Assembly: GCA_965220065.1 (NCBI GenBank) | Contig: OZ244804.1 | Span: forward strand, 4,554,431 to 4,618,430 | Direction: 5' to 3' | Length of the DNA stretch: 64,000 bases | Origin: Candidatus Poribacteria bacterium | GTDB lineage: Bacteria; Poribacteria; WGA-4E; WGA-3G | Part shown: positions 1-27,245 of the stretch, piece by piece | Numbering within the stretch: the stretch's first letter is position 1 | Layout of the letters: each line of letters opens with the position of its first letter | Notes under the pieces: model-generated | Told to the model about the DNA's origin: nothing | The model's input: only the letters and a program-made list of their open reading frames with translations | Databases searched by the model: none | Position numbers and translations under genes: made by a program

Positions 1-2019
1 TACTGGATTATTACCAGAGTTTAACTGTTTCAGTTTTGTCAATCCTGAAAATGGGGAGAAATCAGATATCTGAGTGTTCCAAATAAATACCTCGATAAGA
101 TTTGTCAATCCTGCGAGTGGTGATAGATCCGATAGTGGATTATTTGAAATCCATAACTCTTCCAGATTTATAGCGTGCTCAATGCCCGTCAAATCTTTAA
201 TATCCCTGTTACTTGCTCTTATAATTGTTAATGTTGCCATCTCTTGAAGCGTAATCGGAACAGTCTCCTCTTTCCCAAGTGCGTCTGCGATTACTGCACG
301 CAGGTTCGGGTCGGAAATGTATACACCCGTACCGGGGATCCGCTCTGGACGCTCTTCAGTTGGCAGAAGAACCCTATCAGGGGTATCCAACACAGAAAGC
401 ACTCGGTCAAAATTAGATCTCCACGCATCCCGTTTCATAGTACTATCTTCCAACACCTGCAATCCTAAGTTTTGTAGACTCGCATTTTCACGAACTTTTT
501 CGAGGAACACCTCGGTCTCTAATCCGACAGCGGCAGCAGCGTGCGCCGCATCAAGAGGTCTCTGAAACGCCTCGTAGAACCGTTGAACGGGTTCAATCCC
601 ACCAAAGACACCGCCCGTTGCTTCAAGTGCCTGTCTATAACGGGCAGTATCTTCGCTTACCAAACGATCCATCGTCCCTTGGTTTGTATAGAGTTGCAAC
701 GCTCTGTCTTTATTAAAGGGTGGATTCGCGTTCCGTTGAATAACAGTCCGAACCGTATCTTGAAAATCTTTCATCCCTTCGGTGTGGCATCCAATACAGG
801 ACAATCCATTGCGGACGGTCGGATCACTCGCCGCCGGATTGGAAACGATGTTTATCGGTGCTTCATTAAGGCGATTACCGCTAGCATCTACCAACAGATA
901 TGCCTGCAATCCATTCGGCAAATTAAAGATAATTTCGCCACCGTCATGAGTGAAGGAGAGCGGATGTGTAAAGATGTTCTTTGTCCCAACGCTCCCAGCA
1001 AAGTCGTAACTTTTCCAATACGCGCCATATCGAGAGGTATGACGCTCCACAACACGGTTGTGATTCGACACGCCGGAATCGTTGAAACCTGCACGCCAAA
1101 CGCGTTTGCCTGCCGCATTTCGGAGATTGCTGACGACATCCACATCAAGTTCTGCCTCTAACTCCCGATCGGTTTCAGGAAGATTCAGAATGTCGTGATA
1201 GAGTGGGGGCAATGAGGCAGTCGCAAGAAACCAATCGACATGAACGAATGGCACCTCACAATCCATTGCTTCGCGCAGATTCGTTAATTTTTTATTCAGT
1301 CCTGTCTGTGTTGGGGCGTTGAATTCAATCTCATAAGGATATTCCGCCTCAATCAACGTCCACCGATTGGTTCCAATCTCCCATTCGTAGTCACGGAGGT
1401 CGATATGGAAAATCGTCTCTTCGGGATCAATGGGCTGTGGTTTGATAACCTCGCGTCCCCAAGAAAGACTGTTCACGAGTTTCGAGAGTGCCCGTTGATA
1501 GGCGTGGAGTGCCTCTGCACTTTCACCCGCGTTATAGAGATGTGTGAGTGTAAAATAGCGTGCGAAGGTGCGGTCGAACCGAGAAAGCGAGTTGACATGC
1601 TTCTCAATGGTATCGAGCATCTTCTTGGGCGTGATGAAGGAGATATCTGTCGCAGAGGTGCCTTCCCAACTCGGTGCGCCTGCTTGAATCCAATTACCAA
1701 TCGTCAGAATCGCCGCCGGTGGGAGTTGCGGTTGACCCAACGGCATCCGTTTTGCCGGATCCTTTACAAATAACCGCCTATAGAGTTCAGATTCAATCGG
1801 TTTCCTCGGAACGACTGTGCCTGTTTCGATGAGTGCCGTATGCTCAATGATGATTTCCTCAGTAAACGCCCCATGTTCTCCATGGCAGTTGAGGCAGTTT
1901 TGCTCAAAGATCGCATACGCCTGTTGTGCAAGATTCTGCTGTGCATCAACACTGTGAGAGTTGCCCAGAATGACGGTTAACAGAGAGATGAATGCGATAA
2001 AAATTTTCCAGTTTTTCAT
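1..2019 (-). CDS. N-terminal part of a giant secreted PSCyt-cytochrome / LRR / cohesin-dockerin / T9SS-CTD paralog (copy 1); C-terminal part lies beyond the window start.
   Basis: Reverse complement of 1997..2019 reads ATGAAAAACTGGAAAATTTTT (MKNWKIF), the same N-terminus as the 2661..6686 and 9601..13662 proteins. Plus-strand shadow ORF 541..1161 parallels shadow ORFs 5226..5825 and 12145..12753 of the two full copies at a constant offset. LRR-like sequence runs into position 1. Frame continuity was not verified base by base. Confidence 0.6.
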   Translation of the reverse strand, partial: MKNWKIFIAFISLLTVILGNSHSVDAQQNLAQQAYAIFEQNCLNCHGEHGAFTEEIIIEHTALIETGTVVPRKPIESELYRRLFVKDPAKRMPLGQPQLPPAAILTIGNWIQAGAPSWEGTSATDISFITPKKMLDTIEKHVNSLSRFDRTFARYFTLTHLYNAGESAEALHAYQRALSKLVNSLSWGREVIKPQPIDPEETIFHIDLRDYEWEIGTNRWTLIEAEYPYEIEFNAPTQTGLNKKLTNLREAMDCEVPFVHVDWFLATASLPPLYHDILNLPETDRELEAELDVDVVSNLRNAAGKRVWRAGFNDSGVSNHNRVVERHTSRYGAYWKSYDFAGSVGTKNIFTHPLSFTHDGGEIIFNLPNGLQAYLLVDASGNRLNEAPINIVSNPAASDPTVRNGLSCIGCHTEGMKDFQDTVRTVIQRNANPPFNKDRALQLYTNQGTMDRLVSEDTARYRQALEATGGVFGGIEPVQRFYEAFQRPLDAAHAAAAVGLETEVFLEKVRENASLQNLGLQVLEDSTMKRDAWRSNFDRVLSVLDTPDRVLLPTEERPERIPGTGVYISDPNLRAVIADALGKEETVPITLQEMATLTIIRASNRDIKDLTGIEHAINLEELWISNNPLSDLSPLAGLTNLIEVFIWNTQISDFSPFSGLTKLKQLNSGNNPV

Positions 2020-2302: not shown

Positions 2303-2439
2303 AAAATATTAAGACACAATTTTTAGGCAAAACCTTACATCATGGAAAAAAAGGACTGGATCAGACGGGGATATACTCGTAAGGGAGGGCACTCTTCAAT
2401 AGAGAAATACTGAATTCAGGGCATTCACTTGAGAATATG

Positions 2440-2586
2440 TTACTCAAAAGCATTTGCGACAGCAACGAGATCGAGGACATTGACGATGCCGTCACCATTG
2501 ACAGCTGGTTCAACTTTGCCGAAAGCATTTGCGACGGCGACGAAATCCAAAATGTTCACTGCCCCATCGCTGTTAACATCGTCAAC
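2440..2586 (-). pseudogene. Orphan dockerin-pair coding fragment with no start codon, lying downstream of the T9SS-CTD gene 2661..6686.
   Basis: Reverse-complement translation gives VDDVNSDGAVNILDFVAVANAFGKVEPAVNGDGIVNVLDLVAVANAFE followed by a stop, preceded by an in-frame TGA and containing no Met. Plus-strand ORF 2437..2658 is its shadow. Matches the in-frame dockerin tails of genes 13699.. and 19309.. Confidence 0.65.
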
Positions 2587-2660: not shown

Positions 2661-5600
2661 CTATTTTACGATAACCATTCTCCGCGAATACGATAAACCC
2701 TCCGCCTGCAGTTGGTAGAAATAGACACCACTGGCAACGCGCTCACCGACAGCGTTTCTGCCATCCCAATAGGCGGCGCGACTCCGACCTGTATAATAGC
2801 CTTCATGCTGGTGTCCGAGATTCAGTTGGTGGACGATGGTCCCCCGCATGTCATAGATAGTGATTGTCACCTCACTGGGATTTGCCAAATGATACGGTAT
2901 CCATGTCTCTGGGTTGAACGGATTCGGATAGTTCGGGAGTAGTGCTGTCTCTGCAGGAATTAGTGATGCTAAGAGGCGTTGAAGGTTGGCGATACCTTCT
3001 TGGAAGGCAATGGAGCCGTCATCTTCAAGTTGTGCTTGTTTGATCCACGCTTGTATCATCGCAGGGTTCAATTCGTCCATGCTATCCATAGCAAGAATAG
3101 AAGGCGAAGCTGAAGCTGTTGATTTACCCATGTTCTGCGAGACAAGAATGAGATCCAAGATGTTAACAATTCCATCGCCATTTAGGTCAACATCTGAGTT
3201 GGCGGGGACGGTTTTTCCAAGGTGGCGAGCCACAAGCACCATATCCAGAATGCTCACCTGACCATCCCGATTCACATCTCCAGTAACCTGTTTCCCCTTT
3301 ACAGTAATGACGACCTCATGCGGTCCTGCCTCGATCAGTTTGCCGGTAATAGAAGCGAGTTGAAGGTTATCGAGTCGCAATTGCGTTTGTCCAGCAGTTT
3401 TTGCCGTAAATGTTACTGACAACAGAGCACCTGTGCCACTGACCCCGTCTTCGCTGAGCCTTGCTGAACTCAGCCCCTTAATCTTACCCGATCGATTCTC
3501 AATCGTTCCCCTCTGAAAGAAGGTCGCTCCGCCTTGTGTTTTCAGGAAATTGCCTTCGTTGACCTCAACGGCTTCAAGCACAGCGGAGTCATAAGCAATA
3601 TCAAATTGCCATCCCGCTAAATTGTAGATATCCTCTGCCCTAATTTCGAGCGTAAACGTATTCCCGGCATCGATGATAGGTTGGGAAAATACGTATCCGA
3701 CACGCGGGTTTAACACGGTATACTCTGCCTCTGGGTTAAATCCCCAAAAACCGTTACCCGTCGTTGCTGTTGCAACTAACAAGACATTTGCTCCCTCTTT
3801 GAGCGTAACAGGGACGAAATGTTGGTAATCCGATCCGCTTAAACCCCGTTTCTCATGAACCAAAGCACCGTTGAGCCAGGCTTTACCACCGTCGCTATTC
3901 CCTACACACAGCGTCACCTCTTGTTCCCGGGGTGCATACAAAACAACACATCCATAAATAACACCATGCCGAATAGGAGGCATTAACACCTCCTCGCTAA
4001 TTTCACCCCGCCCCGTAGGCGATATTTTGTCGGAATACCAGAGGTTATCTCCAACAGGATTCCCTTCGGTCGCGCCATGGGTTGAAACCTTTACTTCTGT
4101 CACCGAGCCACCACTCGCTTCTGCAAGGTAATCTATTCGACCTTCAGGATTAAAATTTATCCCCGGCAGTAGCACCCATAACCAGGGACCCTCTATTTTA
4201 GGTCCCCCCTGAGGGAAACCCGGATTTTGGTGCCAGATGATTTTTAGATCCTCTCGTAATCCATCTAAAGGCGAAAAGTCAGATATCATATTTTCGCCAA
4301 CGTGCAACCATGTCAACTGCTTTAATTGGGCAAGGGGCGACACGTCCGATATTTCGTTTTTTGGAAGTTCTAACCATTTCAGGTTGGTTAGTTTCGCTAA
4401 GGGCGATATATCCGATATACCATTGCCAGTAAGATCTAAACGCGTTAACCCCATCAATTTCGCCACAGGTGTGACATCCGATACCCTGGAAAAGCGAAGA
4501 TACAGTTGTTTCAAATTTCTTGCCCCCTCCAGGGTTGATACATCAGGCTCCCCCCCACAAATATCTATAGTTTCAAGCCCTACGAGTGGTGATAGATCAG
4601 ATAATGGATTCCCCCAAGAATCAAACCTTTCCAGATTCGATAAACCCACCAAAGGTGAGAGATTCGATATATTGTTATGGCTAACCTTCAGAAGTTGAAG
4701 ATTCTTTAATCCCGTCAGCGGCGATAAGTCACTTATTTCATTGCTACTAATATCTAAGAGATCCAGTTTTGTTAATCCCTCTATAGGGGATATGTCGGAT
4801 ATTTGGTTTCCCTGAATTTCTAACCGTTCCAGATTTGTTGCGAACTCAAGTCCCGCCAAATCGCTGATGTCCTTGTCTGCAGCAGTAAGCCGCTCCAACA
4901 TCATCATCTCTTCCACTGTAATTGGGGTGTTTGGTGTTTTTCCGATTTCTTCTTCAATGACCGCACGCAAATTCGGGTCGGGGATGTAAACAGATGCCCC
5001 AGGGATGCGTTCCGTCTGCGGATCAACTGAAATCACTACATCCGGGAAATCCAACGCAAACACAATTTCACTGAACTTCGATGTCCATGTATCCCTTTTC
5101 ATCGTGCCATTTTCTAAGACTAACACCCCTAAACTCTTCAAATTCGCGGAGGCACGAATCCTCTTCAGAAACGCCTCGGTCTCCAACCCAACGGCGGCAG
5201 CGGCATACGCCGCATCCACCGGTCTTTGAAATGCCTCGTGGAACCGTTGGACGGGTTCAATCCCACCAAACACATCGCCGGTCGCTTTCAGTGCTTGTTT
5301 GTAGCGATCGGTATCCTCCGCGAGGAGTCCCGCCATCGTCACTTTGTCTGTATAGAGTTGCAACGCCCGGTCTTTGTTAAAGGGTGGATTCGGGTTCTTC
5401 TGAACAACGCCACGCACCTGATCTTCAAAATCCTTCATCCCCTCGGTGTGGCAACCGATACAGGAGAGTCCGTTACGGACAGTCGGATCACTTGCAGCCG
5501 GATTGCGAACGATATTTATGGGTGCCTCATCAAGTCGTCTGCCGCCGGCATCCGAGAGATAGTATGCCTGCAAACCGTTGGGCAGGTTGAAGATAACCTC

Positions 5601-6686
5601 GCCGCCATCATGGGTGAAAGAGAGTGGATGTGTAAAGATGTTCTGTGTGCCGACACTCCCGGCGAAGTCGTAACTCTTCCAATACGCACCGTATCGAGAG
5701 GTATGGCGCTCAACGACGCGGTTGTGATTGGATACACCCGAATCGCTGAAACCTGCACGCCAGACGCGCTTTCCTGCTGCATTCCGAAGATTTTCAACAA
5801 CATTTACCTCAAGTCGTTCCTCTAATTCTCGATCGGTTTCTGGAAGGTCTAAGATGTCATGATAAAGTGGCGGCAAGGAGGCGGTCGCAAGAAACCAATC
5901 GACATGAATGAACGGCACCTCACACGCCATCGCTTCGCGTAGATTCCTCAGTTTTTCACGTAGACTCGTTTGTGTGGGTGCGTTGAATTCAATCTCGTAA
6001 GGATATTCCGCCTCAATCAATGTCCACCGATTGGTTCCGATTTCCCATTCGTAATCCCGGAGGTCAATATAAAAGATGGTTTCTTCCGGATCAATAGGCT
6101 TTGGGACGATAACGTTGCGTCCCCAGGAGAGACTGTTCACGAGTTTCGAGAGTGCTCGCTGATAGGCATGGAGTGCTTCCGCACTCTCACCCGCATTATA
6201 GAGATGTGTGAGTGTAAAATAGCGTGCGAAGGTGCGGTCGAACGGAGAAAGGGAGCTGACGTGCTTCTCAATGGTATCAAGCATCTTCTTGGGCGTGATG
6301 AAGGAGCCATCTGTCGCAGAGGTGTCCTCCCAATCCGGTGCCCCTGCTTGAATCCAATTTCCGATGGTTACAATCGCGGCACCGGACAGTCGAGGTTGAC
6401 CCAATGGCATCCGTTTGGCAGGATCATCTACAAGCAACCGCCGATAGAGTTCGGATTCAATCGCGGGTTTCCCCGGAACAACTGCGCCTGTTTCGATGAG
6501 TGCTGTGTGATCAATGATGATTTCTTCAGTAAATGCGCCGTGTTCGCCATGGCAATTAAGACAACTTTGCTCAAAAACCGCATACGTCTGTTGGGCGAGA
6601 TTTTGCTGTGCATTAACAGTGTGAGAGTTGCCCAAAATGAGGGTCAATAGGGAAACGAATGTGATAAAAATTTTCCAGTTTTTCAT
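2661..6686 (-). CDS. Giant secreted multidomain protein (copy 2). Signal peptide, c-type cytochrome domain with CLNCH plus a second CIGCH motif (Planctomycete-cytochrome-like), large uncharacterized domain, internalin-type LRRs, beta-sandwich region, type-I-like cohesin, dockerin pair, T9SS type-A C-terminal sorting domain.
   Basis: N-term MKNWKIFITFVSLLTLILGNSHTVNA. CXXCH motifs CLNCHGEHG and LSCIGCHTEG. LRR repeats ISDLSPLxGLxNL. Cohesin-like WQFDIAYDSAVLEAVEVNEGNF. Dockerin DVNRDGQVSILDMVLVARHLGK...DLNGDGIVNILDLILV. C-term LLPNYPNPFNPETWIPY...IYDMRGTIV...WDGRN..GERVASGVYFYQLQA....MVIVK matches the Por_Secre_tail consensus. RBS caaggaggaaaaacacATG. Confidence 0.8.
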   Translation of the reverse strand: MKNWKIFITFVSLLTLILGNSHTVNAQQNLAQQTYAVFEQSCLNCHGEHGAFTEEIIIDHTALIETGAVVPGKPAIESELYRRLLVDDPAKRMPLGQPRLSGAAIVTIGNWIQAGAPDWEDTSATDGSFITPKKMLDTIEKHVSSLSPFDRTFARYFTLTHLYNAGESAEALHAYQRALSKLVNSLSWGRNVIVPKPIDPEETIFYIDLRDYEWEIGTNRWTLIEAEYPYEIEFNAPTQTSLREKLRNLREAMACEVPFIHVDWFLATASLPPLYHDILDLPETDRELEERLEVNVVENLRNAAGKRVWRAGFSDSGVSNHNRVVERHTSRYGAYWKSYDFAGSVGTQNIFTHPLSFTHDGGEVIFNLPNGLQAYYLSDAGGRRLDEAPINIVRNPAASDPTVRNGLSCIGCHTEGMKDFEDQVRGVVQKNPNPPFNKDRALQLYTDKVTMAGLLAEDTDRYKQALKATGDVFGGIEPVQRFHEAFQRPVDAAYAAAAVGLETEAFLKRIRASANLKSLGVLVLENGTMKRDTWTSKFSEIVFALDFPDVVISVDPQTERIPGASVYIPDPNLRAVIEEEIGKTPNTPITVEEMMMLERLTAADKDISDLAGLEFATNLERLEIQGNQISDISPIEGLTKLDLLDISSNEISDLSPLTGLKNLQLLKVSHNNISNLSPLVGLSNLERFDSWGNPLSDLSPLVGLETIDICGGEPDVSTLEGARNLKQLYLRFSRVSDVTPVAKLMGLTRLDLTGNGISDISPLAKLTNLKWLELPKNEISDVSPLAQLKQLTWLHVGENMISDFSPLDGLREDLKIIWHQNPGFPQGGPKIEGPWLWVLLPGINFNPEGRIDYLAEASGGSVTEVKVSTHGATEGNPVGDNLWYSDKISPTGRGEISEEVLMPPIRHGVIYGCVVLYAPREQEVTLCVGNSDGGKAWLNGALVHEKRGLSGSDYQHFVPVTLKEGANVLLVATATTGNGFWGFNPEAEYTVLNPRVGYVFSQPIIDAGNTFTLEIRAEDIYNLAGWQFDIAYDSAVLEAVEVNEGNFLKTQGGATFFQRGTIENRSGKIKGLSSARLSEDGVSGTGALLSVTFTAKTAGQTQLRLDNLQLASITGKLIEAGPHEVVITVKGKQVTGDVNRDGQVSILDMVLVARHLGKTVPANSDVDLNGDGIVNILDLILVSQNMGKSTASASPSILAMDSMDELNPAMIQAWIKQAQLEDDGSIAFQEGIANLQRLLASLIPAETALLPNYPNPFNPETWIPYHLANPSEVTITIYDMRGTIVHQLNLGHQHEGYYTGRSRAAYWDGRNAVGERVASGVYFYQLQAEGLSYSRRMVIVK

Positions 6687-6839: not shown

Positions 6840-9056
6840 CTATTTCAGATAAATCTCACCGTCTAAATCAGAAAGGGTGTGATTCACACCAGTAACTCCA
6901 CTTGTGACAGCGGATGCCTGCTCCGGTAAACGAATCTTCTGTTGCTTTCCGCTACGGTTGTAGACTGCCCAACCGTTGGTGAACTCACGGATGAATACAC
7001 CCTCGCTGTCGTCGTAAAGTTGACCCTTCGTTTCATCACCTCCGATCGGACGACCCAAGGGAGCGTCATAGAACCGGTAGTAGTATTTGGAGTGGTGATC
7101 AACATTTTCAAGACGGGCATGTCCCTCTAACTGTGCTTCAGTGCGTCCAACGCTAAATAAAACATAACCATCAGAATGTGTGAGAGTGAGGGTGGTAGTA
7201 ACACGCATCATTTGCTTATTGAGTGGAGAATCTAATGGTTCAGTCGGTACTGCGAAAACTTCAAGAGCATTTATTTGAGGTTCGCGCAGGTTTTTCTCTG
7301 ACCATAACAAGGTACTTTCTATTTCTTGGAGTCCAGCATGAGTCAAATAACCATCCTCATTGTCCCACAAACTTCCTATGAAGGCACCATTGATGTACGG
7401 AGCAGAACACCGAGCTTTAGACTGGTTCGTGTTAACAATAATCAGAAAATCGTCGCCAACGGCTTCACGCATACGACGGAGCATAGAAATTCTCGCTTCC
7501 CACTCATCATAGGTATAATTTAGATGAGGATTTGTACTATTTTCGTTCCACCAATTCAGGAACATACCATCATAGATACCACTCTTGGCAATAGCAACGG
7601 CTTGTTGGACGAAATGATTTTGAGCACTGGGATACGTCCAGTCTATGAGAAGTTCACCCCAACCTACGTCTTGAATTCTATCTCCATTTTCATCCCTTAA
7701 CCAATATGGCCAATCCTCTGGATAAACTTCTGGTGGTGCCCCATAATAGTATATTGCCGCAAGCAGTAAATGATTTGGATTTAGTTTCTGTACCTCACTT
7801 CTTTCATTCTGAATATGCTCTCCTTCTGCTACAAGCAACTGAGATCCATCAGGTGTAAAGTGCCACTGGGCACTGCGGAATGACCCTACTACAAACAGAT
7901 CATGATAACTCAACATCTCTTTATGATACGACCATTCCCATATATTATCGGGTCTTGGATAGTTTAGTAGTTGATGATCCCACATTCCAAAAACAGAAGG
8001 ATATGTTCTGTTTTCAACGCGTTCTACGATGCTCGGTCTATCGGACAGTCTAAGTGAATTCTCCGATGTATTGGGGGTTGAGACCTTCTCAGAAACCTGT
8101 AAACCGGCACTATTGCTTTTACTGATGGTCGTAACTTGCCCAATCTGATTTCGCACGGAGGGTTTTGCGTCAGTCTCAAGGACGATAGGGGCATCAATAA
8201 TTTCAACGGTAGGTTCGGATTCAGCCTCGAAGCTGTAAGGTTTTTGAAAATGTGCGAGGTATTGGTTGCTAACACTGAGCATCAATAGGGTTACTAAAAC
8301 CACAGCTGTCCCAAAAGCCGCCCAGGGGAGCAACGGTTTCGTAGCCGAGGGTGGGGTCAGTTTCAGATCAGCGACTTGCTGCATGACGTTCTGGGTTAAA
8401 TTCGCCGATATCTGCACACTGCCCAGAACCTCTTGAACCAAGGCTTCTTCTTTCTCCCGTAAACGTTTACGTGCCCGACTCAGACGACTACTGATCGTCT
8501 TTACGGAAACGCCCAAGAACTTACTAATCTCCTTCATTGTCATTTCGCCGAGATAGAAAAGCGTCATGACGGTGCGTTCACTCTCCGGCAGTTTTTCAAG
8601 AAGTTTTTTCACGACTTCACGCCGGCGTTCCTCGGCTTCTGCCTCGCGGTGCTCCGACAAATAGTGAGTATAGGAGAGTTTTTCTACTTCATCCACGCGT
8701 GTATCCTCCAGCGATTGCATCGTAGATTTTTGTTTTCGCAGCCAATCCAGGCAACGCCGATTCGCCATGACATAGAGCCATCCGGCAAATTGATAGGGAT
8801 CTCTGAGGGTCGGGAGTTTTTTATAGACTTGGAGGAAGGTGTCTTGGGTAATCTCTTCAGCATAGTGAAAATCGCCAATCTTTCGCCATACAAGCGCATG
8901 AACGCTCTTCTGGTACTTGTCGACCAAGATGCTGAACGCTACATCATCACCTGATAAAATTCTCTGTATCAATTGAACATCGTCTTCTCTTTCCATCAGG
9001 ATTCTCCATGATTCATGAATAGATTTCGCAGCTTTGAACGTTCCCTTTTCTGGCAA
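6840..9056 (-). CDS. ECF sigma-70 factor fused in one polypeptide to a transmembrane helix and a large extracytoplasmic glycoside-hydrolase-like (GHL) TIM-barrel-type domain.
   Basis: N-terminal sigma-70 region 2 (HALVWRKIGDFHYAEEITQDTFLQVYKKL) and region 4 (ERTVMTLFYLGEMTMKEISKFLGVSVKTISSRLSRARKRL). Hydrophobic segment LLPWAAFGTAVVLVTLLMLSV. C-terminal approx 430 aa shared with genes 13699, 16242, 19309 and 21678 (YPSVF..YHDLF..NPNLLLL..YPEDWPYWLRD..IDWTYP..AVAIAKSGIYDGMFLNWW..DDFLIIVNT..YINGAF..REPQIN..THSDGYVLF..FIREFTNGWAVYNRSG..DLDGEIYLK). The xDFTHPxVQxxIIQQxxEVAKCGIFDGIxxDxW stretch resembles the active-site region of GHL10/DUF187-type hydrolases (inference). Confidence 0.8.
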   Translation of the reverse strand: MPEKGTFKAAKSIHESWRILMEREDDVQLIQRILSGDDVAFSILVDKYQKSVHALVWRKIGDFHYAEEITQDTFLQVYKKLPTLRDPYQFAGWLYVMANRRCLDWLRKQKSTMQSLEDTRVDEVEKLSYTHYLSEHREAEAEERRREVVKKLLEKLPESERTVMTLFYLGEMTMKEISKFLGVSVKTISSRLSRARKRLREKEEALVQEVLGSVQISANLTQNVMQQVADLKLTPPSATKPLLPWAAFGTAVVLVTLLMLSVSNQYLAHFQKPYSFEAESEPTVEIIDAPIVLETDAKPSVRNQIGQVTTISKSNSAGLQVSEKVSTPNTSENSLRLSDRPSIVERVENRTYPSVFGMWDHQLLNYPRPDNIWEWSYHKEMLSYHDLFVVGSFRSAQWHFTPDGSQLLVAEGEHIQNERSEVQKLNPNHLLLAAIYYYGAPPEVYPEDWPYWLRDENGDRIQDVGWGELLIDWTYPSAQNHFVQQAVAIAKSGIYDGMFLNWWNENSTNPHLNYTYDEWEARISMLRRMREAVGDDFLIIVNTNQSKARCSAPYINGAFIGSLWDNEDGYLTHAGLQEIESTLLWSEKNLREPQINALEVFAVPTEPLDSPLNKQMMRVTTTLTLTHSDGYVLFSVGRTEAQLEGHARLENVDHHSKYYYRFYDAPLGRPIGGDETKGQLYDDSEGVFIREFTNGWAVYNRSGKQQKIRLPEQASAVTSGVTGVNHTLSDLDGEIYLK

Positions 9057-9544
9057 TAATCAAAAAAGGCCACTCCGTATGATACACGCTTTCGTGACAG
9101 ACTGCCTCTGCCGAGAGGTTCCCGATCGAACGTAGTAAATACGCATCCGATACACTGTTTTCATTTTGAAGGATCGCGTTGCCAATATCTATAGGCAGAG
9201 GTCGTTTATGTGCCGCATTTGCAGTTGTAGCACGTAGAATTCAAAGACCGCACCATTTGATATGGGATCTTCCCTTCCCCTGTTGTTAAAGACGCAATTT
9301 TTTTATTAAAAGTCTGCACTAATTTAACGAATACCAATTCTGATTGATGACTTCTTTTAAAGAGCGTTTCCTGTTTTCGGAGCATGTCCGGTGCGGTTAG
9401 GGGATTTAGTCTGGGGAGAGACTGGATTTAGTCTGGGAATAGACTAAATCCGTTCCTTGTATTACATTCCGCACCTACCGGGCCTGAGTAGATAGTGTGG
9501 TTGAAGTAGCATTCGTAACTCTCAAACGAGCCGTTAAAGATAGA

Positions 9545-9581
9545 AGGGTGGAAGTCCTCTAACTTCCACCCTACTTTTTTG
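9545..9581. terminator. Rho-independent terminator-like hairpin, possibly bidirectional, downstream of gene 9601..13662.
   Basis: agggtggaagt-cctcta-acttccaccct is a perfect 11-bp stem, followed by ACTTTTTTG on the plus strand and preceded by a T-rich tract on the minus strand. Lies 20..56 bp past the stop of the minus-strand gene. Confidence 0.55.
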
Positions 9582-9600: not shown

Positions 9601-12600
9601 CTATTTCCGTATCAGCATCTTCCGCGTTGCCGTGAAATCACCCGCAGTGAGCGTGTAGAAGTAGAGACCACTCGCTACGGACTCACCTATGTCGTTTCTG
9701 CCATCCCAATAGGCGGCGCGACTCCGACCTGTATAATAGCCTTCATGCTGGTGTCCGAGATTCAGTTGGTGGACGATGGTCCCCCGCATGTCATAGATAG
9801 TGATTGTCACCTCACTGGAGTTTGCCAAGTGATACGGTATCCATGTCTCTGGATTGAACGGATTTGGATAGTTCGGAAGCAGTGCTGTCTCTTTTGGAAT
9901 CAACACCACTAAAAGGCTTTGAAGGAAAGCAATACCCTCTCGGAAGGCAATAGAACCGTCATCTTCAATTTGTGCCTGTTCGATCCATGCCTGTATCATC
10001 GCAGGGTTCAATTCGTCCATGCTATTCATAGCAAGAATAGAAGGCGAAGCTGAAGCTGTTGATTCACCCATGTGCTGAGAGACAAGAATGAGATCCAGGA
10101 CATTGATGACTCCATCACCATTTAGGTCAACTTCCGAGTTAGCAGACGCAGTTTTTCCGAAATTCCGAGCAACAAGCACCAAATCCAGAATGCTCACCTG
10201 ACCGTCCCGGTTCACATCTCCAGTCGTGAGTCGTCCCGCTACGGTAATGACGACCTCATGTGATTCTGCAGTGATGGAATTACCGGTAATAGAAGCGAGT
10301 TGAAAGTTATCGAGTCTCAATCGCGTGTGTCCTGCTGATTTTGCTGTAAATGTTACTGACAACAGGGCACCCGTGCCACTGACCCCGGTTTCACTGAGTC
10401 TTGCTGAACTGAGACCTGCAATCTTACCCGACCGATTCTGAATCGTTCCCCTTTGAAAGAAGGTCGCTCCGCCTTGTGTTTTCAGGAAATTCCCTTCGTT
10501 TACCTCAACGGCTTCAAGCATAGTGTGGTCAAAGGCAATATCAAATTGCCATCCCCCTAAATTGTGGATATTTTCTACGTTGAGGTCGAGAGTAAATGTA
10601 TCACCGAGATAGATGAGGGGTTTAGAGAAAGTGTATCCAATACGGGGATCTACGGATACCGAATACTCCGTGCCTTCTTCAAAACTGAAATAACCGCTCC
10701 AACCGCCATCAAATTCATAAACACCCACTAATAAAAAATTTACCCCTTGTTTCAGCGTGACGGGAAAAGCCCTTGGAACCCCGCGGAAAGTGCCATCCAC
10801 TTTCTGTCCATTGAGCCAGGCCTTGCCCACATTATCAGCCTCAGCAAATAAGAATATATCCTGCTCCCGGGGCGAAATCACACGAACTGAACCATAGGCA
10901 ATATGGTTGTTTATATCGCCTTTTCCCAGTCCAGTGGCGTTTGCCATGTCATTCATATTATTATCTGTCGAGGATATTTTGTGAGATTTCCATACACTGC
11001 TTCCAACAAGCGCGCCTTTGGTTGCACCATGGGTCGCAATTTTTAACTCCGTTACCTCACCGCTACTCATCTCTGCAAGAAAATCTGTATCCAGTGACCT
11101 ACCCTCTGTTGGTGTAATTACCCATAACCACGGTCCCTCTATTTTCGGACCTTCCTTTACTGAGGACCCTGGGTTGAATAAGTCAAAAATCTTTGTCGTC
11201 TCAGGCAAGTCATCTAAGGGTGAGAAGTCGGATATATTGTTGTTCTCAAGATCTATCCATTTAAGATTTGTTAACCCGGATAACGGGGATATATCAGATA
11301 TATTGCATTCTCTGAGATTCAGCCATTCGAGGGTGGTTAACCCTGCCAAAGGGGATATATCCGAAAGCCGTCCATTCGCGGCAACACTCAGATGCGTCAA
11401 ATTCGTCAAGTTCGCCAAGGTTGAAAGGTCTGTATCCGACACACCGCAGAAATTTAGATAGAGTTCTTTCAAATTTTTGGCATCCTTCAGCACAGATATA
11501 TCTGGATCTCCACCACATATATCTATATTCCAAAGGTTCGGAAGTTTCATCAGGGGTGATAGGTCAGATAAGAAATTGTTCCAAGACTTAAAATATTCCA
11601 GGTTTTTTAATTCTTCCAGAGGTGAAAGATCGGATATTTTGTTGTTACCTATGTTGATCTTCGCCAAGTTTGTCAATCCTGCCACAGGTGAGAGATCTGA
11701 AACCGAATTATGACCAATATCTAAGGCCCATAAGTTATGTAGTCCAGCAATCGGCGACAGGTCAGAAATGTGCTTGTTACCCTTAAGCCATAGATCTCGC
11801 ATATTTGTTGCAAACTCAAGTCCTGTTAAATCGCGGATGCCTTTGGCATCCGCAAGTGTCTCAAAAGTTTCCAAAGTTGCCATCTCGTCTGCTGTGATCG
11901 TGGCCCCCGGTGCTTTGCCGAGTACTTCTTCAATGACCGCCCGCAGGTTCGGATCAGGAATGTAGACAGATTCTCCAGGGATGCGTTCCGTCCGAGAATC
12001 AACTGACGCTCCACCACTTTTCGATGGGAAATCCAGCGCAAACACGATTTCACTAAACCGATCTGTCCATGTGTCCCGTTTCATTGTGTCGTTCTCTAAC
12101 ACCAATAAGCCTAAATTCTGTAAACTCGCGTTCGCACGAATCTTTTGGAGAAACGTCTCGGTTTCCAAACCGACAGCGGCGGCAGCATACGCCACATCAA
12201 GCGGTCTTTGGAATGCCTCATGGAACCGTTGGACCGGTTCAATCCCACCAAAGACACCCCCCGTTGCTTCAAGTGCCTTCCGATAACGGGCGGTATCCTC
12301 CGCCACAAGCGTATCCATCGTTCCCTTGTCTGTATAGAGTTGCAACGCTCTGTCCTTGTTAAAAGGTGGATTCGCGTTGCGTTGAATAACACCCCGAACC
12401 GTATCTTGAAAATCTTTCATCCCTTCGGTGTGGCATCCAATACAAGACAATCCGTTGCGGACGGTCGGGTCGCTCGCCGCCGGATTGGAAACAATGTTTA
12501 TCGGTGCCGCATCAAGTCGTCTACCGCCGGCATCCGCGAGGTAGTACGCCTGCAAACCGTTGGGCAGGTTGAAGATTATTTCACCCCCATCATGTGTGAA

Positions 12601-13662
12601 AGACAGCGGATGCGTAAAGATGTTCTGTGTCCCGACACTCCCCGCAAAGTCATAACTTTTCCAATACGCCCCGTATCGAGAATCATGACGTTCCACAACG
12701 CGATTGTGATTCGACACACCGGAATCGTTGAAACCCGCACGCCAAACACGTAATCCCGCTGCGTTGCGAATATTTTCGACCACATTCACCTCAAGCCGTG
12801 CCTCTAATTCCCTATCGGTTTCTGGAAGGTCTAAGATGTCATGATAGAGTGGCGGTAAGGAGGCAGTCGCAAGAAACCAATCCACATGAACCAATGGCAC
12901 CTCACAATCCATCGCTTCGCGCAGATTCATTAGTTTTTCACGGAGTGCTGTCTGCGTTGGCGCGTTGAATTCAATCTTGTATGGATATTCCGCCTCAATC
13001 AACGTCCACCGATTGGTTCCGATCTCCCATTCGTAGTTTCGGAGGTCGATATAGAAGATCGTTTCTTTCGGATCAATGGATCGTGGGTTAATAACCTTAC
13101 GCCCCCAAGAGAGACTGTTCACGAGTTTCGAGAGTGCCCGTTGATAGGCGCGGAGTGTCTCAGTCGTCTCACCGGCGTTATAGAGATGTGTCATCGTAAA
13201 ATAGCGGGCGAAGGCACGGTCAAACGGTGCGAGTGAGTTCACATGCTCCTCAATCGTGTCAAGCATCGCCTTGGGTGTAATGAAGGCGGTGTCTCGTTCT
13301 GGCATCTGCCAATCCGGTGCGCCCCTTTGAATCCAATTCCCAATCGTCAGAATTGCGGCGGGAGGCAGTTGGGGTTGACCCAACGGCATCCGTTTTGCCG
13401 GATCGTTTGTGAGGAGTCGCTTATAGAGTTCAGATTCTATCGGTTTCCTCGGAACGACTGTGCCTGTTTCGATGAGTGCCGTATGCTCAATGATGATTTC
13501 CTCAGTAAACGCCCCATGTTCTCCATGGCAGTTGAGGCAGTTTTGCTCAAAGATCGCATACGCCTGTTGTGCAAGATTCTGCTGTGCATCAACACTGTGA
13601 GAGTTGCCCAGAATGAGGGTCAACAGCGAAATAAATATAATAAAAATTTTCCAGTTTTTCAT
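9601..13662 (-). CDS. Giant secreted multidomain protein (copy 3), same architecture as 2661..6686: cytochrome c, LRR, cohesin, dockerin, T9SS CTD.
   Basis: N-term MKNWKIFIIFISLLTLILGNSHSVDA. CLNCHGEHG and CIGCH. LRRs. WQFDIAFDHTMLEAVEVNEGNF cohesin. DVNRDGQVSILDLVLVARNFGK...DLNGDGVINVLDLILV dockerin. LLPNYPNPFNPETWIPY... CTD ending MLIRK. Long stretches nucleotide-identical to copy 2 (e.g. approx 9700-9820 vs approx 2760-2880). Confidence 0.8.
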   Translation of the reverse strand: MKNWKIFIIFISLLTLILGNSHSVDAQQNLAQQAYAIFEQNCLNCHGEHGAFTEEIIIEHTALIETGTVVPRKPIESELYKRLLTNDPAKRMPLGQPQLPPAAILTIGNWIQRGAPDWQMPERDTAFITPKAMLDTIEEHVNSLAPFDRAFARYFTMTHLYNAGETTETLRAYQRALSKLVNSLSWGRKVINPRSIDPKETIFYIDLRNYEWEIGTNRWTLIEAEYPYKIEFNAPTQTALREKLMNLREAMDCEVPLVHVDWFLATASLPPLYHDILDLPETDRELEARLEVNVVENIRNAAGLRVWRAGFNDSGVSNHNRVVERHDSRYGAYWKSYDFAGSVGTQNIFTHPLSFTHDGGEIIFNLPNGLQAYYLADAGGRRLDAAPINIVSNPAASDPTVRNGLSCIGCHTEGMKDFQDTVRGVIQRNANPPFNKDRALQLYTDKGTMDTLVAEDTARYRKALEATGGVFGGIEPVQRFHEAFQRPLDVAYAAAAVGLETETFLQKIRANASLQNLGLLVLENDTMKRDTWTDRFSEIVFALDFPSKSGGASVDSRTERIPGESVYIPDPNLRAVIEEVLGKAPGATITADEMATLETFETLADAKGIRDLTGLEFATNMRDLWLKGNKHISDLSPIAGLHNLWALDIGHNSVSDLSPVAGLTNLAKINIGNNKISDLSPLEELKNLEYFKSWNNFLSDLSPLMKLPNLWNIDICGGDPDISVLKDAKNLKELYLNFCGVSDTDLSTLANLTNLTHLSVAANGRLSDISPLAGLTTLEWLNLRECNISDISPLSGLTNLKWIDLENNNISDFSPLDDLPETTKIFDLFNPGSSVKEGPKIEGPWLWVITPTEGRSLDTDFLAEMSSGEVTELKIATHGATKGALVGSSVWKSHKISSTDNNMNDMANATGLGKGDINNHIAYGSVRVISPREQDIFLFAEADNVGKAWLNGQKVDGTFRGVPRAFPVTLKQGVNFLLVGVYEFDGGWSGYFSFEEGTEYSVSVDPRIGYTFSKPLIYLGDTFTLDLNVENIHNLGGWQFDIAFDHTMLEAVEVNEGNFLKTQGGATFFQRGTIQNRSGKIAGLSSARLSETGVSGTGALLSVTFTAKSAGHTRLRLDNFQLASITGNSITAESHEVVITVAGRLTTGDVNRDGQVSILDLVLVARNFGKTASANSEVDLNGDGVINVLDLILVSQHMGESTASASPSILAMNSMDELNPAMIQAWIEQAQIEDDGSIAFREGIAFLQSLLVVLIPKETALLPNYPNPFNPETWIPYHLANSSEVTITIYDMRGTIVHQLNLGHQHEGYYTGRSRAAYWDGRNDIGESVASGLYFYTLTAGDFTATRKMLIRK

Positions 13663-13698: not shown

Positions 13699-15954
13699 CT
13701 ACTCAAAAGCATTGGCGACGGCGACGAGATCCAGAACATTGACTGTTCCATCGCCATTGACATCTGGGGTATCCTTGCCAAAAGCATTTGCGACAGCAAC
13801 GAGGTCAAGGATATTGACAATCCCATCCGCATTGACATCCGTTGTGGGAGGGGTTTCTAAACCCGATTCCGATTTCAGATAGATTTCACCATCTAAATCA
13901 GGTAGAATGTGCAGGGTGTTGCGTAAACTACTTTCTACACCTGTTGCTTGTTCTATTAGGCGAATAACTTGGGGGGCACCACTGCGGTTATAGACCGCCC
14001 AGCCATTGGTGAACTCTCGGATAAACAACCCCTCTCGGTTCTCATAAAGCTGCGCTTTGGTTTCATCGCCACCAACCGGTTGACCGAGAGGAGCATCATA
14101 GAAGTCGTACCAGTACTTCGTGTTTTGGTGAGTGTGCCGCTTGCCCTGTGCATGAAGATCCGTATGACCTGGCCAAAATTCAAAAGGGTGGGCGGGATGG
14201 TCAAGGGCACCTCCCATGGTAAACATGACATAACCATCGGAATGCGTCAAACTCATCGTCGTCCATAGACGCATCCATTGTAGATTTCTCGAGCTATCCA
14301 GCAGTTCGTTCCTCACGCCCCTGCCTGCTAAACAGTTGATTTGAGGTTCTCGAAGGTTTTCTTCAGCCCACGACAGCGTGCTTTCAATTTCGGAAAGTCT
14401 TGCGTAGGTATAACCGCCCTCATAATCTTCATAAGTTTCCATGAAAACGCCATTGATATATTCCGCATGCCTCGGAATAGTTGTACCAATCGTGTTAGTC
14501 GTCGTTACCAGTATCAAGAAATCCTCACCAACAGCATCACGAATCCCTTGTATGATACGATCCTTTGCGGTATTGGCTTCTTCTACGGTTATATATCCTT
14601 CAAGTGCCTTCGCCCAATGATCTATGGCAATTCCGTCGAAAATCCCACACTTTGCAACTTCAATCGCCTGTTGGATAATCCACTCTTGCGCAGCAGGACG
14701 TGTGAAGTCTATTATATATTCATCCCATGTCGGAATTTCTAATATATTTCCCGATTCATCTCTGAGCCAATATGGCAAATCCTCTGGGTATTCGAGGCGA
14801 GACGCAGCATAGTAATGTATGCCTGTCAGGAGAATCAGATTTGGATTCTGAGCGCGCATCCGATCTATTATTTGCATGGAATCCTCAAGGTTTCCTGTTA
14901 ATTTCCAGCCGTCTGGTGTTGAATTCCAAGCCCACCCGAAACTTACAGCGCAGAAAAACAGATCGTGATATGCTATCCCCTCTTCCCTTGAAAGTTTTGG
15001 GAGGTTCACTATATCCCCACATGCTTGAAAAACCGACGGATGCGCCCTATTTTCAATACGAGGCAGTATAGGGGCTCTCTCTATATCGCAAGTAACTAGA
15101 CGGTGTGTCTTTAGTATCTGAAGGACTTCTGAATCTAATGATATACGTCCCAAAGTTAAGACTTCTATCCCGGCAAGCCCATAAATCGGTGTAAAGTCAA
15201 TGATTTTATTTCTGCTGAGATGCAATTCTTTCAGATTCACCAAGCCTTGTAGCGGTGATATATCTGCTATCTGATTACTTTCAAGTGCCAATCCTTTTAA
15301 GTTGACGAGTCCAGTGAGTGATGAAATATCTTCTATCTGATTTGCTTCAAGTTGCAATTCTTTCAGGTTCACCAAGCCTTGTAGCGGTGATATATCCGTC
15401 AGAAGATTGGCGTTCAGTTCAAGAACCTGTAGTCCCACAAGTCCCGCGAGTGGTGAAATATCTGCTATCTGGTTACGTCCCAATACCAAAACTTCCAGAT
15501 TTATCAAACCTGCAAAGGGCGTTATATCCGAAATTCGATTCTCATACAACTTTAAAACCCGTAAGTTCTCAAGCCCCACGAGCGGTGTTAAATCCGACAC
15601 TTGACTTTTAATAATAGACAAGGATTCTAAGTTCTCAAGTCCCGCAAGTGGCGTTAAATCTGAGACTTCACTTCTGTCAATAACCAAAACTTTAAGATTC
15701 ACGGCATGCTCAAGTCCTTTTAAACTCCTAATATCGGGTTCTATTTTTATTAAGAGAAGATTTTGTAATCTTGCCATGTCGCCAGGGTGTATCGGTATTG
15801 TGTCCGGAACTGCGAGTTCTTCACGGATAGCTTGCTGTAGATTCGGGTCAGGCATCCAGTCTTCTTTGTCTTGGGCGTGTGTGATGTCTCCGAGTGAGGT
15901 AATTAGTAGCAATCCGATCAACATAACTGTAGATATGAATCCATTGATTTTCAT
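13699..15954 (-). CDS. Secreted LRR + GHL-domain protein with C-terminal dockerin pair. True start is the MKINGF signal peptide; the ORF-track extension to 16350 is spurious.
   Basis: MKINGFISTVMLIGLLLITSLGDITHAQ signal peptide, matching the start of gene 19309..21546. Reverse complement of CAT at 15952..15954. LRRs VSDLTPLAGLENL. GHL domain. C-term DVNADGIVNILDLVAVANAFGKDTPDVNGDGTVNVLDLVAVANAFE. Only 36 bp from the upstream gene, so probably co-transcribed. Confidence 0.75.
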   Translation of the reverse strand: MKINGFISTVMLIGLLLITSLGDITHAQDKEDWMPDPNLQQAIREELAVPDTIPIHPGDMARLQNLLLIKIEPDIRSLKGLEHAVNLKVLVIDRSEVSDLTPLAGLENLESLSIIKSQVSDLTPLVGLENLRVLKLYENRISDITPFAGLINLEVLVLGRNQIADISPLAGLVGLQVLELNANLLTDISPLQGLVNLKELQLEANQIEDISSLTGLVNLKGLALESNQIADISPLQGLVNLKELHLSRNKIIDFTPIYGLAGIEVLTLGRISLDSEVLQILKTHRLVTCDIERAPILPRIENRAHPSVFQACGDIVNLPKLSREEGIAYHDLFFCAVSFGWAWNSTPDGWKLTGNLEDSMQIIDRMRAQNPNLILLTGIHYYAASRLEYPEDLPYWLRDESGNILEIPTWDEYIIDFTRPAAQEWIIQQAIEVAKCGIFDGIAIDHWAKALEGYITVEEANTAKDRIIQGIRDAVGEDFLILVTTTNTIGTTIPRHAEYINGVFMETYEDYEGGYTYARLSEIESTLSWAEENLREPQINCLAGRGVRNELLDSSRNLQWMRLWTTMSLTHSDGYVMFTMGGALDHPAHPFEFWPGHTDLHAQGKRHTHQNTKYWYDFYDAPLGQPVGGDETKAQLYENREGLFIREFTNGWAVYNRSGAPQVIRLIEQATGVESSLRNTLHILPDLDGEIYLKSESGLETPPTTDVNADGIVNILDLVAVANAFGKDTPDVNGDGTVNVLDLVAVANAFE

Positions 15955-16241
15955 AAGGCGTATTCTCCTTCTATTAGATAGTAGAAATTGGTTTGTTTTT
16001 CTGGTGTTAGAACTATTTGGGATGGCAACAAGGTCCAAAATGTTGACGCTTTCATCGCTATTGACATCTGCAGGCGATGTGCTTATTTTATAAAAATCTC
16101 GCCGTCTAAATCCGGGATGGTGTGTGATGTGCTGCTGATACGACTCGCAACACCTGTGGCTTGGATCGGCAACTGGATCTGCTATTCTTTGCCGCTGCGA
16201 TTGCAGACCACCCGTCCGAGTTATCATAAGGTCATTTGATA
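15955..16241 (-). pseudogene. Untranslated fossil of a GHL-domain 3' end plus one dockerin repeat, between the T9SS-CTD gene 16242..19211 and gene 13699..15954.
   Basis: Nucleotide homology to the 3' ends of genes 6840.., 13699.. and 21678.. (ttataaaaatctcgccgtctaaatccggg...). Translation gives a remnant like AVYNRSGKE*QIQLP...IPDLDGEIFIK with an internal stop, then FYKISTSPADVNSDESVNILDLVAI (decayed dockerin). Plus-strand ORF 15988..16239 is its shadow. Confidence 0.6.
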
Positions 16242-21593: not shown

Positions 21594-21677
21594 TCTGGTG
21601 TTAGAAACGATTTGCGATAGCAACGCGATCAAAAATGTTGACGCTTTCATCGCTATTAACATCCGCAGGTGGTGTGC
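21594..21677 (-). pseudogene. Out-of-frame decayed dockerin repeat immediately 3' of the sigma-fusion gene 21678..24425.
   Basis: Frame +1 relative to the gene reads RDLYKISTPPADVNSDESVNIFDRVAIANRF then a stop. In the dockerin-tailed paralogs the same junction is in frame (DLDGEIYLKSESGLETPPTTDVNADG...). Plus-strand ORF 21598..21801 is its shadow. Confidence 0.55.
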
Positions 21678-27078: not shown

Positions 27079-27095
27079 GGTCACATCTATATTTT

Positions 27096-27215: not shown

Positions 27216-27245
27216 TATATTGTTATTATCAAGCTCAAATCTTTG

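Follow-up and report, generated by a model that had tools for sequence, protein, structure and literature searches.

Two fused sigma factor genes and their family

The window analyzed here is a stretch of 64,000 nt (64 kb) from a Candidatus Poribacteria bacterium (contig OZ244804.1 of assembly GCA_965220065.1, positions 4,554,431–4,618,430). It contains two minus-strand genes, each of which encodes an extracytoplasmic function (ECF) sigma factor, a transmembrane (TM) helix and an ectodomain related to glycoside hydrolases (GH) in a single polypeptide chain. Copy 1 is 718 amino acids (aa) long (positions 6840–8996) and its ectodomain is a GHL15 domain. Copy 2 has 915 aa (positions 21678–24425) and carries a leucine-rich repeat (LRR) block in front of GHL15. 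In both cases GHL15 is classed below as a pseudo-enzyme. Translation of the two open reading frames (ORFs), 6840–9056 and 21678–24425, shows no interruption. The conserved start of copy 1 is the ATG at 8996, which has a GGAG Shine-Dalgarno sequence 7 nt upstream; homologs start at the same place with MEREDDVQLI, and the TTG at 9056 only marks the longest possible ORF. Copy 2 has a GTG start codon with an AGGAGG Shine-Dalgarno sequence in front of it.

The first-pass annotation, made from the sequence alone, had described a single-chain ECF sigma/TM/GH-like architecture, and domain models and a single hydrophobic peak bear this out. The N-terminal region was expected to match sigma-70 regions 2 and 4, and it does so well above the Pfam cut-offs: in both copies Sigma70_r2 scores 52–56 bits (cut-off 24) and Sigma70_r4_2 scores 58–59 bits (cut-off 25.7), and Sigma70_ECF is matched as well. 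GHL15 is found at the C-terminus of both copies (30–31 bits, cut-off 27), and LRR_4 is confined to copy 2 (65.7 bits). With the NCBIfam model TIGR02937 (sigma70-ECF; cut-off 42.9) the score is 104 bits, and 163 of the 165 model positions are covered. The sigma core spans aa 1–182 and consists of sigma-2 and sigma-4 only, without sigma-3 or sigma-1. By domain content the fusions are ECF (group 4) members of the sigma-70 family.

In copy 1 the core domains occupy positions 8460–8927 (minus strand), with sigma-2 at aa 24–91 (8724–8927) and sigma-4 at aa 128–179 (8460–8615). The corresponding region of copy 2 is 23889–24356 (minus strand; sigma-2 at 24156–24356, sigma-4 at 23889–24044). Both domains are modeled with confidence by AlphaFold2 (AF2) in the N-terminal module of copy 1. 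The nearest NCBIfam models to the core are of the SigW, RpoE and AlgU types, yet they stay below their equivalog cut-offs, and all NCBIfam subfamily and equivalog models score far under their own cut-offs for this core. The nearest relatives in the PDB are SigW, SigH/AlgU-type sigmas and RpoE, and the closest solved structure to the copy 1 core is SigW (5wuq, E 1.6e-21). A PDB sequence search with aa 1–300 finds sigma chains only, and these matches never extend past about aa 194.

Behind the sigma core of copy 1 is a cytoplasmic linker (aa 183–221; positions 8334–8450, minus strand), in which AF2 places two short helices (aa 181–191 and 199–211) with pLDDT of about 80. A linker of about 40 aa is kept across paralogs. 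It gives zero Pfam matches to an anti-sigma domain, including zf-HC2, and there is no Cys or His at aa 183–221. The first-pass annotation had placed the sigma and its anti-sigma/sensor in one chain; the sensor is indeed part of the chain, but a recognizable anti-sigma domain is not found by Pfam. The only hydrophobic peak of copy 1 is at aa 222–242 (Kyte-Doolittle 19-mer value of 2.2) and that of copy 2 at about aa 221–241 (2.26). The TM helix of copy 1 is thus LLPWAAFGTAVVLVTLLMLSV (aa 222–242; positions 8271–8333, minus strand), with a conserved P-W-x-A-F-G motif, and the TM helix of copy 2 is at about aa 222–241 by the same Kyte-Doolittle analysis (23703–23762, minus strand). The helix contains Pro, Gly and Ala. 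It is flanked by Lys on the N-terminal side and by acidic residues on the C-terminal side, which fits an N-in/C-out orientation and hence a single-pass type II topology.

The TM helix is followed by a 45-aa juxtamembrane motif, SNQYLxRFQKPYSFEAxSEPTIEIIDAPIVLDxDAKPAVRNQxGR, delimited by conservation at aa 243–287 in copy 1 (positions 8136–8270, minus strand) and aa 242–286 in copy 2 (23568–23702, minus strand). In 79 paralogs with different ectodomains it is as well conserved as the sigma core, and a variable low-complexity spacer lies behind it. When modeled by AF2 as part of the N-terminal module, the TM helix and the motif have low confidence and no structure. The motif of copy 1 is a candidate site-1 cleavage or partner-docking segment. 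In copy 2 the LRR block is at about aa 330–500 (22926–23438, minus strand; Pfam LRR_4 and LRR_8). A 118-aa query consisting of linker, TM helix and motif was compared with 1.84e9 representative proteins and gave 252 clusters, nearly all of which match at about aa 181–300, directly behind a sigma domain. Essentially none of the 252 clusters has a free-standing linker-TM-motif module, and the matches near residue 1 are short and resemble fragments or miscalled starts. As the module is nearly always behind a sigma domain, there is no evident free-standing anti-sigma counterpart.

The fusions belong to a large family. A first protein search gave at least 120 clusters (90% identity), with sigma domains in all and the fusion architecture throughout the matches listed. 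A second search with the N-terminal 310 aa gave 1,860 clusters (E ≤ 1e-20). In species-representative genomes 309 stretches were found, the best 80 of which show at least 3–4 loci per closed chromosome; a set of 78 related loci comes from these genomes. The label Poribacteria is carried by every homolog of the sigma-bearing proteins that has a named source and by 76 of the 78 related loci, the remaining two being labeled "uncultured bacterium". An independent 452-kb contig has a syntenic gene order with copy 1 in the matching position, and the copy 1 orthologs P0001–P0003 have an identical architecture. A stop or frameshift between the sigma and ectodomain parts, named in the first-pass annotation as what would speak against the fusion, is therefore absent both from the ORFs and across assemblies. 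They probably represent a family of one-component ECF sigma factors that span the membrane, a family that is specific to Poribacteria and has been heavily duplicated. 

Translation of the related loci shows that sigma, linker, TM helix and juxtamembrane motif, which make up the first 300 or so residues, form a single conserved cassette that bears differing ectodomains. The commonest architecture is that of copy 2, LRR plus GHL15, with whole proteins of about 890 aa. GHL15 alone, as in copy 1, is found in proteins of 718–755 aa. Other ectodomains consist of three LRR blocks without GHL15 (920–1000 aa), a Kelch propeller (624–649 aa), BNR/sortilin-like propellers (966–1001 aa) or a Reg_prop propeller, and some proteins of about 300–330 aa apparently have none. 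The latter include P0398, P0399 and P0435, one of them on a 6-Mb contig, which end shortly past the juxtamembrane motif. These could be fragments, or minimal forms that are signaled through a partner bound to the motif.

GHL15 ectodomains and the loss of catalytic residues

The ectodomain of copy 1 (aa 321–718; positions 6843–8036, minus strand) is a GHL15 TIM barrel with a C-terminal beta-sandwich, as determined from an AF2 model (pLDDT 90.6), Foldseek and a family profile. The GHL15 ectodomain of copy 2 is at positions 21681–22883 (minus strand). The best Foldseek matches are GH168 endo-1,3-fucanases and PbFucA, a GH114-like enzyme, with E values of 7e-15 to 1e-11 and TM-scores of 0.55–0.66 (top entries 8rg5, 9nhf, 9jom and 8ya7, with E from 7e-15 to 7e-12). 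The GHL15 family profile also matches GH114-type TIM barrels in the PDB (PbFucA, 8rg5) at E 4e-8. These enzymes have in common with the ectodomain a TIM barrel, a small beta-sandwich and aligned catalytic Asp/Glu positions. They differ in sequence (12–17% identity), in that Pfam files the ectodomain under GHL15, a hypothetical family, and in that the fused copies are without the catalytic pair.

The published catalytic residues of PbFucA are D184 and E254, which correspond to the nucleophile D206 and the acid/base E264 of Fun168A (PMC11685898). In an alignment of hidden Markov models (HMM), Asp161 and Glu221 of the family (ectodomain numbering) fall on D146 and E216 of the 8rg5 chain. The mapping is consistent, since the spacing is 70 residues in both the chain and the published numbering and the offset between them is a constant 38. 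The nucleophile Asp is at the end of beta-4 and the acid/base Glu at the end of beta-6. In copy 1 the nucleophile position is N481 (codon at 7554–7556, minus strand) and the acid/base position is G541 (7374–7376, minus strand). In copy 2 these positions are N666 (22428–22430, minus strand) and Q727 (22245–22247, minus strand). Both the Asp and the Glu are retained in the three secreted GHL15 proteins encoded between the two fusions: gene B (19309–21546, minus strand; LRR, GHL15 and dockerin), gene C (16242–19211, minus strand; LRR, GHL15, a low-density lipoprotein (LDL)-receptor-B/beta-propeller and a type IX secretion system (T9SS) C-terminal domain) and gene D (13699–15954, minus strand, true start MKINGF at 15954; LRR, GHL15 and dockerin).

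The same contrast is present throughout the family. Asp161 is found in 122 of 123 secreted GHL15 domains, Glu221 also in 122 of 123, and both in 121 of 123. In the sigma-fused domains (n = 161), position 161 is Gly in 113, Asp in 25, Asn in 16 and another residue in 7; position 221 is Glu in 128 and another residue in 33; only 15 of these domains have both residues. In 83 alignment columns the secreted enzymes are at least 95% conserved. Among these columns the nucleophile is the least retained in the fused proteins (16%), followed by a conservative Leu-to-Ile column (17%), and the acid/base Glu is within the five least retained. The rest of the pocket is kept: 70 of the 83 columns are still at least 90% conserved in the fused proteins, other pocket residues included, and the non-catalytic pocket residues D156, W163, R190, Y214, N216, E240, W245, R278 and H287 are 100% conserved.

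On these alignments the fused GHL15 domains appear to be members of the fold but not enzymes, i.e., they are catalytically disabled, and would therefore be sensors rather than displayed enzymes. A retained pocket combined with a lost catalytic pair, isosteric in copy 2, is the pattern expected of a substrate-binding pseudo-enzyme. The catalytic losses appear to have happened separately in several lineages. The GHL15 domain of copy 1 nests among secreted GHL15-dockerin enzymes, with 62–64% identity. Its closest fused relatives, P0002 and P0003, have Asp/Gly at the two positions and copy 1 itself has Asn/Gly, which indicates a stepwise loss. P0306 and P0322, annotated in metagenome-assembled genomes of Chloroflexota, have GHL15 domains about 50–52% identical to the copy 1 ectodomain; these may represent horizontal exchange among sponge symbionts or binning errors.

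The ectodomain had been described in the first-pass annotation as the same domain that is displayed on neighboring secreted proteins, and for copy 2 the relationship is close. Its GHL15 domain is closest to that of gene D in its own operon, with 78% identity, and the two genes are 93–96% identical in DNA sequence near the 3' end. The LRR blocks of the two proteins also align. At the catalytic codons the differences are single-base and isosteric, GAT in gene D to AAT in copy 2 (Asp to Asn) and GAA to CAA (Glu to Gln). Remnants of modules are present between the genes. A half-dockerin remnant is found out of frame directly past the copy 2 stop codon (21604–21663, minus strand). Between genes C and D (16086–16202, minus strand) is the fossil 3' end of a copy-2-like gene (…NRSGK.QIQLP..ATGVASRISSTSH.IPDLDGEIFIK*) together with a dockerin remnant, and a complete dockerin-coding remnant (2443–2586, minus strand) lies past the stop codon of gene G, the gene next to copy 1. 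The module fossils and the similarity of copy 2 to gene D imply that the array evolves by duplication and by recombination or shuffling of modules, and that the sensors were recruited from dockerin-bearing enzymes.

An ectodomain of this kind might instead report on proteins, such as the assembly or occupancy of a cohesin/dockerin/LRR surface complex or a sponge protein, with the dead GHL15 domain as a structural mimic. Protein-binding modules are indeed carried by paralogs on the same cassette (LRR-only, Kelch and BNR/WD-like propellers), and copy 2 retains the LRR block common to the secreted enzymes. However, a structural mimic does not account well for complete conservation of the non-catalytic pocket with specific loss of the catalytic pair, nor for the isosteric Asp-to-Asn and Glu-to-Gln changes of copy 2, and protein sensing is considered unlikely.

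Promoters and transcription units

The 350 nt upstream of the fusion genes contain a long common motif, TTTTTTcaaATTATGCAnnTTTtc…AAAaTTCGTCTTTAATAATAGAGGG. It has an ECF-like promoter core, TGCAnnTTT…CGTCTTTAAT, which is found ahead of both fusions and of a third gene of the array. A position weight matrix (PWM) of the promoter, built without the sequences of the window, gives exactly three sites in its 64 kb; the next best score is -4 and the maximum of five shuffles is 4.8. The site of copy 2, ATGCGAATTT-N-TTCGTCTTTAATAAT (24533–24578, minus strand), scores 59.9 and is 119 nt before the start codon. The site of copy 1, GTGCAGACTTTT ... TGCGTCTTTAAC (9282–9327, minus strand), scores 25.9 and is followed by a leader of 298 nt. 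The third site, GATGTAAGGTTTT ... TGTGTCTTAAT (2304–2349, minus strand), scores 21.5 and is upstream of a paralog of the scaffold genes E and G described below. A search of this kind for an ECF-type promoter had been suggested in the first-pass annotation.

In the related loci the promoter motif precedes 72 of 92 fusion ORFs. A total of 108 sites are found over the 78 loci, 107 of them on the strand of the fusion. According to a BLAST classification of the downstream genes, 30 sites precede non-fusion genes, and every one of these encodes an exported or membrane protein. With an invariant CGTC and, about 15–16 nt further upstream, a G/A-rich -35 box, the motif resembles ECF promoters of the SigW-type consensus. 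The SigW promoter is TGAAAC-N16-CGTA, in contrast to the sigma-70 type TTGACA-N17-TATAAT. The -35 box falls into classes that vary in step with the sigma-4 recognition helix across paralogs, and the class of copy 1 is also found upstream of the fusions L037, L040 and L041, which bear an identical sigma-4 helix. This covariation is suggestive of paralog-specific recognition.

The -35 class of the third promoter (GATGTAAGGTTTT) fits L027/L017-type sigma paralogs, which the window does not contain, and in L032 the orthologous gene has the identical 46-mer ahead of it. Scaffold genes may thus be cross-regulated by a sigma encoded elsewhere. A conserved ECF-type promoter is present ahead of the fusions' own genes, and these sigmas would be expected to recognize it. 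ECF sigma factors commonly autoregulate (PMC7826278).

The motif might also be served by another factor, either a different ECF sigma or one acting at a lineage-specific housekeeping promoter, in which case the fusions would not be autoregulated. The -10 region does hold TTTAAT/TAATAAT, which is similar to a sigma-70 -10 element, 30 sites lie before non-sigma genes, and the sigma-4 covariation is confounded by shared ancestry. Against this, the three sites in 64 kb are all in the array and none precedes the approximately 30 housekeeping and metabolic genes of the window; the CGTC, the G/A-rich -35 box and the spacing of about 15–16 nt fit ECF and not sigma-70 promoters; and exported or membrane proteins are the products of all the targets other than sigma genes. 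A different factor is therefore an improbable explanation.

Other features are present near the promoter of copy 1. Between it and an upstream terminator, AGACTAAATCC occurs in three direct copies (9400–9460), and an inverted repeat with a 13-bp stem is found at 9423–9452. The copy 1 leader is unusually long, about 298 nt compared to about 119 nt for copy 2. Rfam shows no known RNA elements in the window, the long leaders included.

Downstream of copy 2, gene D is followed by gene E (9601–13662, minus strand), which encodes a putative secreted scaffold of 1353 aa with a CxxCH (PSCyt1-like) N-terminus, LRRs, a cohesin, a dockerin and a T9SS C-terminal domain. An intrinsic terminator with a 12-bp stem (9545–9572, minus strand) closes this operon. 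Gene G (2661–6686, minus strand), a paralog of gene E, is 153 nt downstream of copy 1 and presumably co-transcribed with it, as gene B presumably is with copy 2. The third E/G paralog (1–2019, minus strand, ATG at 2019) continues beyond the left end of the window. Pfam shows that the genes adjoining the fusions share GHL15 and LRR domains, with dockerin, cohesin or T9SS sorting domains in addition. The PWM scan of the window finds no promoter motif ahead of genes B, C, D, E or G, and where the starts are clear the intergenic gaps are 131, 97, 36 and 153 nt. The lack of a motif before these genes, the short gaps and the strong terminator past gene E indicate as likely transcription units P-copy 2-B-C-D-E-terminator, P-copy 1-G and P-third scaffold gene. 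Each fusion would then head its own operon, and the earlier proposal that the two fusions bracket one array does not hold. In the related loci, a scaffold-like protein of about 1,350 aa is encoded downstream on the same strand in 33, and LRR-GHL15 proteins in 39.

The three paralogs of about 1,350 aa have a CxxCH heme-binding N-terminus with weak PSCyt1 and Cytochrome_CBB3 matches. Past it are about 450 aa without domain assignment, then LRRs, one cohesin, one dockerin, FlgD_ig and the T9SS C-terminal domain. Beside the array, at 25189–29669 and 34541–35506, are three to four genes for xylose-isomerase-like TIM barrels and a UxuA-like mannonate dehydratase, with a pectate-lyase-like gene at 27246–28685. 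Such a set of genes would fit a pathway of uronate/hexuronate catabolism that follows the breakdown of polysaccharides. A TnpB/IS605 OrfB-like gene (29919–31133, plus strand; OrfB_IS605 and a Cas12f1-like TNB domain) is overlapped by an antisense ORF (29724–30695), and near it is a gene for an N6/N4 DNA methylase (33590–34405, minus strand). Tandem paralogous genes at 55112–56218 and 56534–57628 (minus strand) encode sigma-54 activators with little beyond the AAA+ domain and its lid, and no receiver or sensor domain is detected at their N-termini.

Comparison with known systems and proposed function

The first-pass annotation stated that ECF groups with TM and carbohydrate-active extensions are catalogued mainly in Actinobacteria, and the literature places comparable proteins in ECF52 and ECF53. 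These (e.g., SCO4117 of Streptomyces coelicolor) are similar to the fusions in having an ECF core, one or more C-terminal TM helices and a long extracytoplasmic extension. The extensions may hold carbohydrate-binding or predicted glycosyl-hydrolase domains, and activation by proteolysis has been proposed. ECF52 differs in that it has a zinc-finger anti-sigma segment (ZAS-like, HxxxCxxC) and a proline-rich region, whereas the poribacterial linker has no Cys or His. The TM helix and the long carbohydrate-related extension of ECF52 are thus present in the fusions and the zinc-finger segment is not. The poribacterial proteins in turn have their own 45-aa juxtamembrane motif, exchangeable ectodomains, and a GH domain that has lost its catalytic residues and descends from enzymes with which it is co-transcribed.

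IutY of Pseudomonas putida (ECF243) is also one chain of ECF sigma, single TM helix and periplasmic part. TM-fused ECF sigmas are widely predicted, and IutY alone has been characterized mechanistically; it is the only one experimentally shown to be freed by site-1 (Prc) and site-2 (RseP) proteolysis. It differs in having a FecI-type sigma and a FecR-type anti-sigma, with the signal coming from a TonB-dependent siderophore receptor. The fusions have no FecR match in Pfam and the window has no TonB-dependent receptor. The SigI-RsgI systems of Clostridium thermocellum are alike in their paralogous sigma/sensor pairs, extracytoplasmic modules of carbohydrate-binding or GH type, cohesin/dockerin (cellulosome) targets, paralog-specific promoters, and membrane-adjacent cleavage followed by RseP. 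They differ in that they consist of two polypeptides, with an RsgI_N anti-sigma and a folded periplasmic domain with Asn-Pro autocleavage, and are found in Firmicutes. The poribacterial fusions are one chain with a generic SigW/RpoE-like ECF sigma and an unrelated juxtamembrane motif; RsgI_N gives no match in them, and their motif is predicted to be disordered and is without the fold of the RsgI periplasmic domain. The closest system is thus ECF52/53 by architecture, IutY by demonstrated mechanism and SigI-RsgI by logic.

Taken together, the fusions are likely to function as pseudo-enzyme ligand sensors in which regulated proteolysis frees the sigma, with autoinduction of an array of cohesin/dockerin/T9SS enzymes as the outcome. 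The co-encoded T9SS cargo implies an outer membrane, and the sensor domain is therefore probably periplasmic. The dead GHL15 domain would bind without cutting the glycan targeted by the secreted enzymes or, more likely, its periplasmic oligosaccharide products. Binding would make the juxtamembrane motif, or some nearby site, accessible to site-1 cleavage. The TM helix, with its many helix-breaking residues (P-W-x-A-F-G), would then be cut by an RseP-type site-2 protease. The released sigma would bind RNA polymerase and fire its own ECF-type promoter, the -35 box of which would be matched to the sigma-4 helix of that paralog. Induction of both the sensor and the enzyme/scaffold operon would give positive feedback. 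SigW and RpoE, the sigmas most similar to the fused cores, are likewise controlled by regulated intramembrane proteolysis. Precedents for release by proteolysis are IutY, freed by Prc and then RseP, and RsgI, processed by autocleavage and then RseP. Both the proteolytic release of the sigma and the nature of the sensor ligand are inferred, the release from these precedents.

Several observations weigh against this model. There is no site-1 or site-2 protease gene in the window, and the gene families that recur in the surroundings of 77 loci do not include a protease. A canonical anti-sigma would not fit into so short a linker, which also has no zinc finger, so that the inactivity of the tethered sigma is in doubt. 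Both catalytic residues are present in 15 of the 161 fused domains and in 104 of 161 the Asp alone is lost. The relationship to GH168 is distant, as the low identity given above indicates. The covariation of promoter and sigma could merely reflect a gene that is co-inherited with its upstream region.

Some of the same observations would suit a sigma that is never released and works while tethered to the membrane, like ToxR/CadC, or is tuned by ligand-driven oligomerization, with the motif as a dimerization or docking element. With no recognizable anti-sigma domain in its 40-aa linker, nothing obvious restrains the sigma; no protease gene is linked to the fusions; and the motif has no known cleavage signature. 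This is nevertheless doubtful, because IutY, the only characterized TM-fused sigma, is released by Prc and RseP, because the TM helix has conserved helix-breaking Pro/Gly residues and an Ala-rich face as in RseP substrates, and because, with sigma-4 on a tether of only 40 residues, the loading of RNA polymerase onto DNA would have to take place right at the membrane. An origin of the fusions by mis-assembly, or by a frameshifted sigma gene run into an enzyme gene, is rejected as practically inconceivable: recombining repeats and module fossils do abound in the array, but the frame, TM helix and juxtamembrane motif are kept in hundreds of clusters and in independent assemblies, closed chromosomes included, so the fusion is not an assembly artefact.

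Proteolytic release thus remains the favored explanation for the two fusions, and a broader proposal can be made for the family with more reserve. The sigma-TM-juxtamembrane cassette of Poribacteria, with more than 1,800 clusters, might possibly be a general plug-in chassis for almost any extracytoplasmic binding module, inactivated versions of the enzymes under its own control among them, with all paralogs read out by one shared machinery at the 45-aa motif and promoter specificity diversified through sigma-4/-35 covariation. This phylum-wide cassette and the repeated conversion of enzymes to receptors go beyond the first-pass annotation, as do the isosteric catalytic pair seen against a 78%-identical sibling enzyme and the defined promoter/operon model.

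The sensor of copy 2 appears to be an inactivated version of an enzyme whose gene lies about 6 kb further down the same operon, and the ligand of the sensor should therefore be findable from what the sibling enzyme cuts. A modular cassette of this type could supply orthogonal single-protein extracellular sensors for synthetic biology. The locus ties regulation to the cohesin/dockerin and eukaryote-like repeat proteins that have long been noted in Poribacteria, and suggests that specific glycans, possibly sulfated ones from the host, cause these sponge symbionts to deploy an enzyme complex at their surface. If the plug-in proposal is true, the cassette would be a major, so far undescribed signal-transduction system of this candidate phylum and a natural case of repeated convergent conversion of enzymes to receptors.

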